In this document: piece after piece, positions 8,448 through 10,818 of the stretch
Position numbering within the stretch: position 1 is the stretch's first letter
Layout: the number at the start of each line of letters is the position of its first letter
Assembly: GCA_036825195.1 (NCBI GenBank)
Contig: DAISYQ010000013.1
Span: 4,286-68,285 of the forward strand
Length of the DNA: 64,000 bases
DNA from: Syntrophales bacterium
GTDB lineage: Bacteria > Desulfobacterota > Syntrophia > Syntrophales > UBA2210
Reading direction: 5' to 3'
Translations under genes and position numbers: made by a program
Notes under the pieces: generated by a model
What the model was told of the DNA's origin: nothing
Databases searched by the model: none
Seen by the model: only the letters and a program-made list of their open reading frames with translations

Positions 8448-9281
8448 TTACTTTTCCCGATAAATAATGGTGCCCACGTGTTCACCGGCAAGGGCACGGG
8501 TGATGTTTCCTTCTTCCATGCCGTTGATGATCTGTATGCTGTCGAGCACTTCGCTTTCCTGGAGGATCTCGAGGCAGGGACGCTCCACGATCAGATCAAC
8601 CAGATCCCGCTTCATCAGTTCGCGCGCGCCGATCTCGGCGATGAAATCGGCATGGGGGTTCTTTTTCGGGTCATCGGTATACAAGCCCTTTTCGTCCTTG
8701 ACGAAGATACAGGACTTGGAGCCGATGAGGTTGGCGAGGAGCACGGTGCCCACATCGGTGCGGTGCACGGGTATTCGCCCCTTTGCCGGCGGAATGGCAA
8801 AGTAGTCGTAGGGCGGCATGCCGTGCATAATGGGGATGCATTCAGTGGCAAAGTAGGTATGAAGCTTCACCACGTCGTCGTGACCGATCTTTACCCCGCC
8901 CCAAGGTGAGAGGAGGGTGGCGATGAGGAGGGCGTTCTGTTCCGAGATGGTGCTGCCGAACTTCGCTATAATGCCGGTCGGCATGCCGAGTTCGAGACCG
9001 ATGCTGTAAATGTGGCGGCTTCTCGTGCCGCCCCCGGTCGTGATGAGGAGTTTGTGGTGGTCCTTGTTCGCAACAATCTCCTTCACGATTGACGGCAGGG
9101 CCTTGATTCCCCTGTCGCAAATTGATTGCCCGCCGATCTTGAGGACGTCCACATCGGGAAACAGGCGGGTCTGGGGCGCCAGTTTGATGCTTTCGTAGAG
9201 GTCTTTGCCCACCAGACTTTCACCCATGAGCTGACTCTTTACGTGCAGTCTCTTTCCATCCTTTTCTCTTAGAAGTGCCAT
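8448..9281 (-). CDS. amino-acid-kinase-fold protein, molybdenum storage protein (MosA/MosB)-like
   Basis: Blocks collinear with A. vinelandii MosB as I recall it: KIGGQS..DRG, HKLLITTGGGTRSRHIYSI, GMPPY, HRTDVG, FVKDEKGLYTDDPK, NITRALAGEHVGTII. Confidence 0.85.
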   Translation of the reverse strand: MALLREKDGKRLHVKSQLMGESLVGKDLYESIKLAPQTRLFPDVDVLKIGGQSICDRGIKALPSIVKEIVANKDHHKLLITTGGGTRSRHIYSIGLELGMPTGIIAKFGSTISEQNALLIATLLSPWGGVKIGHDDVVKLHTYFATECIPIMHGMPPYDYFAIPPAKGRIPVHRTDVGTVLLANLIGSKSCIFVKDEKGLYTDDPKKNPHADFIAEIGARELMKRDLVDLIVERPCLEILQESEVLDSIQIINGMEEGNITRALAGEHVGTIIYREK

Positions 9282-9364
9282 ATGAATACCTCGAAATCCT
9301 TTTGATGAAATTTTTCTGTAAAATATTCAAACTTGTGGACTGGGTGGTTCGCTCCGGCAGGGCG

Positions 9365-9577
9365 CTATACTTCTATCTCTTCATCCTGTTTTTCGCCCCG
9401 CTTGAGTTCGATCAGCTCCGCCCCGACTTCACGGGCAATCTGTTCGAGTTCGCTCTTTCGCATATGCTTGACAAATATTTTCATGTCAAGCCCCGCCACC
9501 GCCACCAGATTAAAACGGGGTTTTTTCTCACCCTCATTAATCTTCTGACGTTCTCGGTAGAAGATTTTTCCGGCCAT
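9365..9577 (-). CDS. small conserved protein (70 aa), paralog of 9889-10089
   Basis: MAGKIFYRERQKINEGEKKPRFNLVAVAG.D.KI..KH.RKSELEQIA. GGAGGA RBS. I chose the internal ATG of ORF 9365-9682. Confidence 0.7.
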   Translation of the reverse strand: MAGKIFYRERQKINEGEKKPRFNLVAVAGLDMKIFVKHMRKSELEQIAREVGAELIELKRGEKQDEEIEV

Positions 9578-9805
9578 GACCGATCTCCTCCATGAATGGT
9601 TTGGGTTGTATATCTGACTGTTCCGGAAGGGCTTTATGTGAGTTGCTCTCCATTGCCCGTCACGGTGACTCTCAACCGACACACCGCCACCGGGTGCGCA
9701 TTGTACGAGACCGTAACCATTGACTCGTTAGCGCATTATAGCAGAGAAGTGTCGGAGAAGGAAAGCCGTTTAATGGTGATGAACCGGGCGGTCGCACCTC
9801 ACCGG

Positions 9806-9852
9806 GATGAAAAGGACAGGGCCCCGCATGCCCGCGTGGCATGGGGACCCTG
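9806..9852 (-). terminator. intrinsic terminator after the first small paralog
   Basis: On the minus strand: a 15-bp GC-rich stem (CAGGGTCCCCATGCC / GGCATGCGGGGCCCTG, one bulge), ACGC loop, then TCCTTTTCA. Confidence 0.6.
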
Positions 9853-9888
9853 CAGTTGAAACGCTTTAGACTATCGGGCGTCGTTCGC

Positions 9889-10089
9889 CTATTTCATCTT
9901 CTTTTCGCCGCCGGTCAGTTCTACCAGTTCCGCGTTGATCTTTTTGGCGATCTGTTCGAGCTCGCTCTTGCGCACGTGTTTGGCATGTATCTTGAGGTCC
10001 GTTCCCGCCGACGCCACCAGGTGGTATCGAGGCTTTTTCTCTCCCTCGTCCACCTTTCTCCTCATTCGATAAAAGATTGTTCCTGCCAT
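9889..10089 (-). CDS. small conserved protein (66 aa), paralog of 9365-9577
   Basis: MAGTIFYRMRRKVDEGEKKPRYHLVASAGTDLKIHAKHVRKSELEQIAKKI. AAGGAG RBS inside the end of the upstream gene (6-nt gap). Confidence 0.7.
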   Translation of the reverse strand: MAGTIFYRMRRKVDEGEKKPRYHLVASAGTDLKIHAKHVRKSELEQIAKKINAELVELTGGEKKMK

Positions 10090-10095
10090 GACCTG

Positions 10096-10818
10096 TCACT
10101 CCTTTTTCTTGTGTTTCTTTCCCACGGTTTCCCATAGCTGGTTGCCGTTTCTGTTGACCGGCAACAGCACCCTGCCGCCCCATAATCGGGGCCTAAGCCA
10201 TCCCTGGGTATCGATCACATCATCCGGGGCCGGGGTGAGGGCTTCCCGGTCAACGGAGATCACAATGATGCCGCGCGCTTCCAACTCGGACACCGTCACC
10301 TGAGAGGGAAAGTCGCGCAGTCTGGAGAATTCGATAAACCGGCCGCTCCTGCCATAAACACACAGGCCGACGCCTGCCGCCGCCCCAATGATGCCGTCGT
10401 TGGTGCCGCCATGTCCAGAGAGGTGGATTCCCTCGCAGGCACTGAGAGCCTCCTGCTGGGTTACCACTTGCCGGGAGCATTTGAGACCGAAGTCCATGAG
10501 TCGAGGAAGGGAGGGATCGTCATCGCAGGCGACGCAGAGGCCGGGGTCGCTGCCGGGTGCGGCAAGTTTCTCCACATGAGCGACGGCACGCTGGATCAGG
10601 TCGGGAAGGATCGAGTGGTCCGGTGCATCGACAATGGCGCAGGCCGAACTGTTGTGCGACGTGTAGGGAATGCCCTCCATAACCGGCAACTGCTGCCGCA
10701 CCACGCCCCAGAGACTGCACCCCTGAGGCAGCTCGTCTTCAAACCAGCGGGTCAGCTTTCCTGTCCCAAAGGTTGAATCGATATTATCGGTATCGTCGAA
10801 TGCAACGAACACTTTCAT
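10096..10818 (-). CDS. hypothetical protein with N-terminal FDDTD motif
   Basis: Start at MKVFVAFDDTDN with an AAGGAGA RBS. The N-terminus is reminiscent of the DDTD start of TiaS-type proteins, but I recognise no confident family. Confidence 0.65.
   Translation of the reverse strand: MKVFVAFDDTDNIDSTFGTGKLTRWFEDELPQGCSLWGVVRQQLPVMEGIPYTSHNSSACAIVDAPDHSILPDLIQRAVAHVEKLAAPGSDPGLCVACDDDPSLPRLMDFGLKCSRQVVTQQEALSACEGIHLSGHGGTNDGIIGAAAGVGLCVYGRSGRFIEFSRLRDFPSQVTVSELEARGIIVISVDREALTPAPDDVIDTQGWLRPRLWGGRVLLPVNRNGNQLWETVGKKHKKKE

Follow-up and report, generated by a model that had tools for sequence, protein, structure and literature searches.

We analysed a 64,000-nt window from a Syntrophales bacterium (assembly GCA_036825195.1, contig DAISYQ010000013.1, positions 4,286 to 68,285; the window means this whole stretch). 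A module of four minus-strand open reading frames (ORFs) lies within it, in the order T (240 aa), S1 (66 aa), S2 (70 aa) and M (277 aa). M is a single-subunit protein of the molybdenum storage (MoSto) family, S1 and S2 are two copies of a small basic protein S, and T is related to the kinase domain of the RNA-modifying enzyme TiaS. We found that S stands directly beside each single-type M that was examined, and that none was found in five genomes with MosA/MosB-type pairs. The four genes are the local variant of T-S-M, a conserved three-gene module that is present in many anaerobic bacteria, mostly beside genes for tungstate/molybdate uptake, and that would serve tungsten/molybdenum (W/Mo) homeostasis. 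The reading that we prefer, with a probability of roughly 0.55, is an ATP-driven Mo/W store made of one subunit type together with S, with T as an accessory enzyme.The identity of M (8448-9281, minus strand; amino-acid-kinase fold) was investigated by a search of solved structures. M matched Azotobacter MosB with E = 1.4 × 10−66 (228 bits) and MosA with E = 1.2 × 10−43 (153 bits), whereas UMP kinases reached at most 33 bits (E = 2.6 × 10−7 or weaker). The alignment with MosB runs over 259 residues without a gap at 45% identity, and the collinearity that a preliminary description of this DNA had claimed is real for MosB. Pfam AA_kinase also matches M (E = 1 × 10−22), and M passes no equivalog of NCBIfam. 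When Mos-like proteins of the single and paired types are aligned, the phosphate-binding motifs KIGGxS, GGG, TD and KD show no variation. Met155 of M aligns with Met149 of MosB, a residue that Bruenle et al. in 2019 reportedly proposed as the gate for molybdate entry. By its sequence, M is shown to be a member of the MoSto family. A UMP-kinase identity was ruled out by the scores, and the host has its own PyrH-like gene, which is separate and lies on another contig. The host genome, which is 96% complete, contains one Mos-like gene and exactly two S genes.

Public annotation gives the orthologues of M various names, namely 'uridine kinase', 'amino acid kinase family protein' and 'molybdenum storage protein subunit beta'. 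RefSeq uses 'uridine kinase' for the MoSto-family proteins of Syntrophus buswellii and Desulfonema magnum (WP_408998932.1, WP_207680594.1). This label on M orthologues is very likely a misannotation.

We then placed M in a maximum-likelihood tree of Mos proteins. The MosA/B-type pairs of the phylum formed one clade (support 99/97) with two subclades. The upstream genes make up the alpha-like one and the downstream genes the beta-like one, to which Azotobacter MosB belongs. Another group of single proteins, which we call type 2, was sister to the pair clade (96/99); these proteins are 47-53% identical to M and are transcribed convergently with S. M and its orthologues (type 1) fell outside both groups. 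The root of the tree is unsure because the outgroup, the PyrH of the host, sits on a very long branch. On any rooting M remains outside the pair clade, and therefore it is an orthologue of neither MosA nor MosB. The kinship with MosA/MosB that had been proposed earlier thus holds for the family and not for either subunit. A grouping with UMP kinases, named in the preliminary description as the outcome that would speak against a Mos relationship, was not seen: 228 and 153 bits for MosB and MosA stand against 33 or fewer, and the tree puts M beside the Mos pairs. If the root lies outside the Mos family, the M lineage would predate the duplication that formed the pairs.

Two unusual Mos genes were observed in other genomes. 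In genome G116 the alpha-like upstream copy of a pair (L039:8257-10341, minus strand) encodes 694 aa, with an extra N-terminal extension of ~420 residues. In genome G162 only residues 103-276 of M are present (L036:7131-7652, 74% identical), away from the contig ends and with no S or T near them. This truncated M is probably a remnant.

S1 (9889-10089, minus strand) is the paralog linked to T; it is basic (isoelectric point, pI, 9.9) and has no acidic C-terminal tail. S2 (9365-9577, minus strand; pI 8.0) ends in the acidic tail ...DEEIEV, and the two are 65% identical. Neither has a match in Pfam, NCBIfam or the sequences of the PDB, and a profile of the S family gave nothing significant against the PDB sequences, which agrees with the earlier remark that the mini-protein was not recognised as a described family. 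The S profile was also searched against 1.84 billion representative proteins (E ≤ 0.001). This search gave 176 representatives at 50% identity, nearly all of 34-134 aa; no fusion to M, T or a recognisable domain exists among them, and the tails of the longer ones are of low complexity or unrelated. One S homologue is named 'YccT (UPF0319)' by JGI. The S proteins that accompany M have 66-82 aa.

The first ~60 residues of S are highly conserved, and the invariant positions include I5, F6, R8, R10, K12, E17, K18, K19, P20, R21, H38, R40 and E43. Residues 1-45 are very basic, and their net charge has a median of +5. The last 10-20 residues are the most variable part and are often acidic; S1 ends in ...GGEKKMK, and others end in ...PKHQGQDSGK. 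An AlphaFold2 model of S has the order beta-alpha-beta-alpha-beta at a predicted local distance difference test score (pLDDT) of 76, which is moderate. The ratios of nonsynonymous to synonymous substitution rates (dN/dS) against orthologues were 0.07-0.11 for S1 and 0.03-0.09 for S2. Such values indicate strong purifying selection, and therefore S1 and S2 are real genes and not chance ORFs.

The linkage of the three genes was explored in several sets of genomes, in which ORFs are simple ORF calls. The sampled genomes are phylogenetically clustered, and the counts below are not independent trials. Six of 41 close relatives have all three genes side by side, and a seventh has S next to M. S was found in none of the 13 congeners; all that they show of M is a contig-end fragment in one genome, and all that they show of T is a distant paralog in another. 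The phylum (Desulfobacterota) was sampled evenly with 301 genomes. S is present in 20 of these (~7%), in each case with a single M at a distance of 2-400 nt. One further genome of this sample has a truncated M only. Of the 20 S-carrying genomes, 12 have T adjacent and one has it on another contig; four have only a distant paralog, and in three T was not found. Five other genomes of the sample carry two adjacent Mos genes. S was found neither genome-wide in these five nor at the Mos locus (E < 0.7), and T was not found at these loci either, even at relaxed thresholds.

A scan of 185,579 species genomes detected at least 594 Mos-like loci, of which the best 80 (71-86% identity to M) were examined. 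In every one of them (80/80) S is the gene directly upstream of M, and chance adjacency of S and M is rejected because of this linkage. The absence of conserved linkage, which the preliminary description had named as a point that would speak against a common module, was found neither here nor in the phylum sample (20/20). T is co-directional and directly upstream of S in 43 of the 80 loci, four more are cut by contig ends, and nine have a divergent T paralog. Overall, T directly precedes S in about 60% of loci, and about a third of the S-M loci have no T. The gaps are mostly 1-23 nt from T to S and 2-85 nt from S to M. The rule that S occurs with a single M and never with pairs had no exception in the genomes searched, and T, S and M are inherited together. 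Among the named carriers are Syntrophus buswellii DM-2, Desulfonema magnum 4be13 and Desulfobulbus rhabdoformis DSM 8777, and further Smithella, Syntrophorhabdus and Desulfocapsaceae, with single metagenome-assembled genomes (MAGs) labelled Synergistaceae and Candidatus Vecturithrix. In genome G240 the whole T-S-M cluster is decayed (L035:6516-8334), T and M being spread over several frames with in-frame stops; here the module was lost as a unit.

To describe the gene context, 184 flanking proteins from 26 loci were scanned with Pfam, and families of Mo/W transport and regulation were enriched among them. The commonest were as follows. Binding proteins of the ModA/TupA type (SBP_bac_11/PBP_like_2) and ABC_tran proteins were found 14 times each, BPD_transp_1 and TOBE proteins 10 times each, and regulators with PBP_like + HTH_17 six times. 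The last architecture is known from TunR, a regulator that responds to tungstate. The flanking proteins also included molybdopterin oxidoreductases and DUF364. In one metagenomic locus the order is TOBE, T, PadR, S, M (convergent) and an ABC transporter of the Mod/Tup type; genes for FdhD, for an FmdE-MoCF_biosynth protein and for a molybdopterin enzyme are near it. In a close relative from the Desulfomonilia, T-S1-S2-M adjoins a molybdopterin oxidoreductase. The idea of a metal storage or assembly module, put forward in the preliminary description, fits these genes for Mo/W uptake and regulation that flank the module in other genomes. The host has six AOR-family genes (tungsten-type aldehyde:ferredoxin oxidoreductases, tungstoenzymes), on contigs C4, C83, C19, C21 and C23 (two), which implies a high tungsten demand. 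With these genes and with Mod/Tup-type transporters elsewhere in its genome, the host is equipped to use both tungsten and molybdenum.

T (10096-10818, minus strand) is the protein with the DDTD motif, and its sequence begins MKVFVAFDDTDN. It had not been recognised as a described family in the preliminary description, but it can be classified: T is a homologue of the TCKD-fold kinase of TiaS. The AlphaFold2 model of T is confident (pLDDT 86), and its residues up to ~158 match all TiaS structures in Foldseek (E = 2 × 10−8 to 6 × 10−5; for 5xob, 3amt and 4rvz 2 × 10−8 to 3 × 10−7). A profile of the T family matches residues 1-160 of A. fulgidus TiaS (E = 9 × 10−5). The MxxxxGxDDTD start and the IPY, (D/N)PG and G(I/L)IGA motifs are in register between T and TiaS. 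Pfam TiaS_TCKD gives weak matches in 25 of 42 members of the T family, and T itself scores 15 bits, under the gathering score of 27. The NCBIfam TiaS model is matched only at positions 1-152 of 422, with 16 bits against a cut-off of 600. A true TiaS was thus ruled out, since T is far below the family cut-off and has no TiaS part beyond residue ~160; JGI names some T homologues 'TiaS'. The C-terminus of T is a beta domain of ~80 residues with no fold match and an invariant GWLRPRLW motif.

Public data contain more than 3181 clusters of T at 90% identity, which makes this a large family. Distant paralogs (36-46% identity) are the last genes of importer operons of the FecCD/ABC/Peripla_BP_2 type, and they likewise end operons with a TonB receptor and a CbiQ-type energy-coupling factor (ECF) transporter (loci L128-L135, e.g., L134:1004-5754 and L128:248-5834). 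Because T paralogs occur in several importer operons, the link of the family as a whole is to metal uptake and extends beyond S.

The twin S genes can be explained by the history of the operon. Most genomes have a single S, and every S elsewhere scores better against S2 than against S1. By these sequence scores, S2 is the counterpart of the single S that stands beside M elsewhere. The combination of S1 and S2 is restricted to this window and its nearest relatives (L048, L049/L012 and L050). The twin small paralogs of the preliminary description are therefore present, and they are a feature of this lineage and not of the module in general. A GC-rich hairpin with a T-run follows S1 in these relatives also, and its sequence differs between the genomes. 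A terminator after S1 is retained in three genomes. In L050 a 240-aa DUF305 gene on the opposite strand (4906-5628, minus strand) has been inserted between S1 (4468-4668) and S2 (5751-5963), and therefore T-S1 and S2-M are separate units in this lineage. The twin genes are a lineage-specific duplication, by which an ancestral T-S-M operon was split, with a terminator in between, into T-S1 and S2-M, and the acidic tail was lost in S1. Each half of the operon kept its own S, from which the simplest inference is that both T and M need S, which would then act together with each of them.

For the store that we prefer, the following mechanism may be proposed. M would form a homo-oligomeric cage, as its hexameric UMP-kinase and MoSto relatives suggest. 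ATP at the conserved kinase-type site would drive tungstate or molybdate into the cage, and the metal would be held there as oxo-clusters. S would be an obligatory physical partner of the single-type M. It may supply the role of the second paralogous subunit of the (alpha-beta)3 cage of Azotobacter, or it may bind the oxyanion or the clusters and gate loading or release. T would be an ATP-using accessory in loading or mobilisation, where it would either modify S or activate the metal species, and it appears dispensable because about a third of the S-M loci lack it. Tungsten is more likely than molybdenum to be the cargo because of the tungstoenzymes of the hosts and the Tup/TunR-type neighbours, and the data here do not separate the two metals. 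A more detailed version is doubtful and is given as a tentative picture: S would be a stoichiometric subunit that makes a homo-oligomeric, pre-MosA/B cage a tungsten store, and T, as an ATP-dependent enzyme, would switch between loading and release by modifying S or activating the oxyanion. The three would then make up a machine for tungsten storage and release that is widespread in anaerobes, and the T family would be a general class of metal-trafficking kinases, as yet unrecognised, that serve several kinds of metal importers.

Other explanations should be weighed against this store. M may be a Mo/W-handling enzyme, an oxyanion kinase or chaperone between the transporter and cofactor biosynthesis, with S as an oxyanion shuttle and no large deposit. 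The module does lie among uptake and cofactor-maturation genes (FdhD, FmdE-MoCF_biosynth, MoeA-type), and the single-type M is outside the MosA/B-pair clade, the sole clade in which storage has been shown. However, the gapless 45% identity to MosB over the whole length suggests that the architecture, cage wall included, is conserved, and a metal reserve would be useful to a host with six AOR-family genes. We consider a handling enzyme unlikely. It is also distinctly unlikely that S is a regulator instead of a subunit, acting on nucleic acids or as an allosteric control of M (and T) by Mo/W. Dedicated regulators (PadR and the TunR-like PBP_like + HTH_17 proteins) are already present in many loci, S has no match to a helix-turn-helix or other DNA-binding family or to the PII or ACT fold, and a general regulator would hardly be expected to be strictly absent wherever MosA/B-type pairs occur. 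What speaks for a regulator is the very basic segment of residues 1-45 and the predicted beta-alpha-beta-alpha-beta order. Enzymes of the amino-acid-kinase fold are often under small alpha/beta regulators, such as PII for N-acetylglutamate kinase and ACT domains for aspartate kinase.

A carrier-protein pathway similar to LysW/LysX/LysZ seems highly improbable. In such a pathway T would ligate a substrate to S and M would phosphorylate the S-bound substrate, and the product could be a Mo/W-cofactor-related or another metabolite. M shares the amino-acid-kinase fold with LysZ and ArgB, but it is far closer to MoSto (E about 1 × 10−66) than to metabolic kinases (1 × 10−7 or weaker). S is small and its C-terminal tail is often acidic; however, the C-terminus is the least conserved part and S1 has no acidic tail, whereas an attachment site ought to be invariant. 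This speaks against S as a LysW-type carrier, as the tails vary and an invariant acidic C-terminal attachment motif is missing. TiaS chemistry is an ATP-dependent activation followed by amine attack, and T has the TiaS kinase fold with the DDTD motif. The gaps of 1-23 nt also imply that T and S are translationally coupled. Against this, T is missing from about a third of the S-M loci, and the neighbours are oxyanion transporters and regulators and not biosynthetic enzymes.

Several observations weigh against the store itself. In single M proteins of type 2, the Met that aligns with MosB Met149 is replaced by Val or Ile. The model of S, which is only moderate, has no significant structural neighbour in the PDB (best E = 1.0), and we infer the contact of S with M or T from gene order alone. 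The correlations between the distance matrices of S, M and T are all alike (r = 0.72-0.77) and do not discriminate between partners. T paralogs without S occur in iron/cobalt-type uptake operons; S is then not their substrate, and the idea that T acts on S is weakened. No Mo/W gene adjoins the module in this window, the Mod/Tup-type genes, TOBE proteins and TunR-like regulators of the host being on other contigs. A molybdenum-cofactor (Moco)-type riboswitch was found neither here nor in 11 other loci.

Compared with known systems, M is most usefully set beside MoSto of Azotobacter vinelandii (MosA/MosB; PDB 2OGX, 4F6T, 6GU5). The two share the amino-acid-kinase fold, the nucleotide-site motifs and the Met, and genes for Mo/W uptake stand near the module in other genomes, though not in this window. 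However, M is one subunit gene, while MoSto has two paralogs that form an (alpha-beta)3 heterohexamer. MoSto deposits about 100 Mo/W atoms, in the form of polyoxometalate clusters, in a process that depends on ATP. M is always accompanied by S and often by the TiaS-like enzyme, whereas genomes with MosA/B pairs have no S. The hosts of M are strict anaerobes rich in tungstoenzyme genes, whereas Azotobacter is an aerobic nitrogen fixer. MoSto can store tungsten too (PMC6448029), and its cluster ligands His-alpha156, Glu-alpha129 and His-alpha140 are on the alpha subunit (PMC8154434).

TiaS, the archaeal tRNA(Ile2) agmatidine synthetase (3AMT, 5XOB), shares with T the N-terminal TCKD kinase fold and its motifs. 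T has 240 residues against ~420, and nothing in T matches TiaS beyond residue ~160. That part of TiaS consists of ferredoxin-like, oligonucleotide-binding (OB) and zinc-ribbon domains, which bind tRNA. T is bacterial, is found in metal-uptake operons and has its own beta domain of ~80 residues. The molbindins (Mop; Tub of Eubacterium limosum) are as small as S (~70 aa), and TOBE proteins often flank T-S-M. Molbindins are cytoplasmic, are encoded beside Mod/Tup transporters, and have been proposed or shown to hold tungstate or molybdate (PMC11980592). S differs from them in its predicted secondary structure and in being tied to M and not to a transporter; a molbindin or TOBE identity of S is not supported, since neither S1 nor S2 matches Pfam TOBE (PF03459) at E up to 1. 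With PII and ACT, as an analogy only, S has in common that a small alpha/beta protein is paired with an oligomeric protein of the amino-acid-kinase fold; S has no sequence or fold match to either.

Cage-type storage of Mo/W is known only from the MosA/MosB heterohexamer of Azotobacter. MoSto is said to have no known homologues (PMC6448029), and recent surveys place MosAB among the rarest and latest-evolving Mo genes (PMC13144720). The other Mo/W stores that are named are molbindins and Tub (PMC11980592). In the literature searched we found only the (alpha-beta)3 MoSto of Azotobacter, and nothing on a single-subunit MoSto form, on S, or on T in Mo/W loci. What is new here is a separate single-subunit Mos lineage, which lies outside the pair clade and is always found with S and often with a TiaS-like enzyme. 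The contrast that S occurs only with single M, the duplication of S with the split of the operon, and the T paralogs at other metal importers are also new. The single-subunit module occurs commonly among tungstoenzyme-dependent syntrophs and sulfate reducers. If it is a tungsten store, it would supply a missing part of tungsten management in anaerobes, the view of MoSto evolution would change to one with a single form outside the pair clade, and two uncharacterised protein families would gain a testable role. The cultured carriers, Syntrophus buswellii DM-2, Desulfonema magnum 4be13 and Desulfobulbus rhabdoformis DSM 8777, make the module directly testable.

The layout given in the preliminary description agrees with our reading of the window, as all four minus-strand ORFs are present, with 6 nt from the stop codon of T to the ATG of S1 and 83 nt from S2 to M. 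Its terminator after S1 also stands. A hairpin resembling an intrinsic terminator, with a U-rich tail, is found at 9806-9853 (minus strand); it has a GC-rich stem of 16 bp (9816-9853), a folding energy of −34 kcal/mol and a z-score of −2.9 against shuffles. The promoter-like TATAAT before S2 fared less well. A TATAAT box can be read at 9735-9740 (minus strand), with a leader of ~155 nt before S2, but the −35 region is weak and a promoter scan did not report the site. The folding of the S2 leader is ordinary (z = −0.11 against shuffles), and its sequence showed no conservation in L048 or L049. Rfam gave zero matches in the region 8000-11200 at E up to 1, the S2 leader included. The best consensus match of the promoter scan in the region is a putative site upstream of T at 10926-10954 (minus strand), TTGACA/17 nt/TATACT, with 11 of 12 consensus positions.

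In a Syntrophorhabdus MAG, a fluoride riboswitch (L067:8636-8700, minus strand; 59 bits against a gathering score of 34) lies ~1.8 kb downstream of M, and it is probably unrelated to the module. In our window two TPM-domain genes converge on M, and beyond T there are an insertion sequence (IS) transposase (DDE_5) and a methyltransferase; none of these flanking genes has to do with metals. The ends of the IS are not definable, as the genome has no second copy and clean terminal inverted repeats are lacking. The promoter-like site of T overlaps the presumed end of the IS (~10938-12268), and the IS might supply the −35 box of a hybrid promoter. The GC content is 0.52-0.57 across the module and the IS (10096-10818; 10001-12000) against ~0.48 for the whole window. 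Because of this raised GC content, and because the module was found intact in none of the 13 congeners, it probably belongs to a variable or acquired part of the genome.

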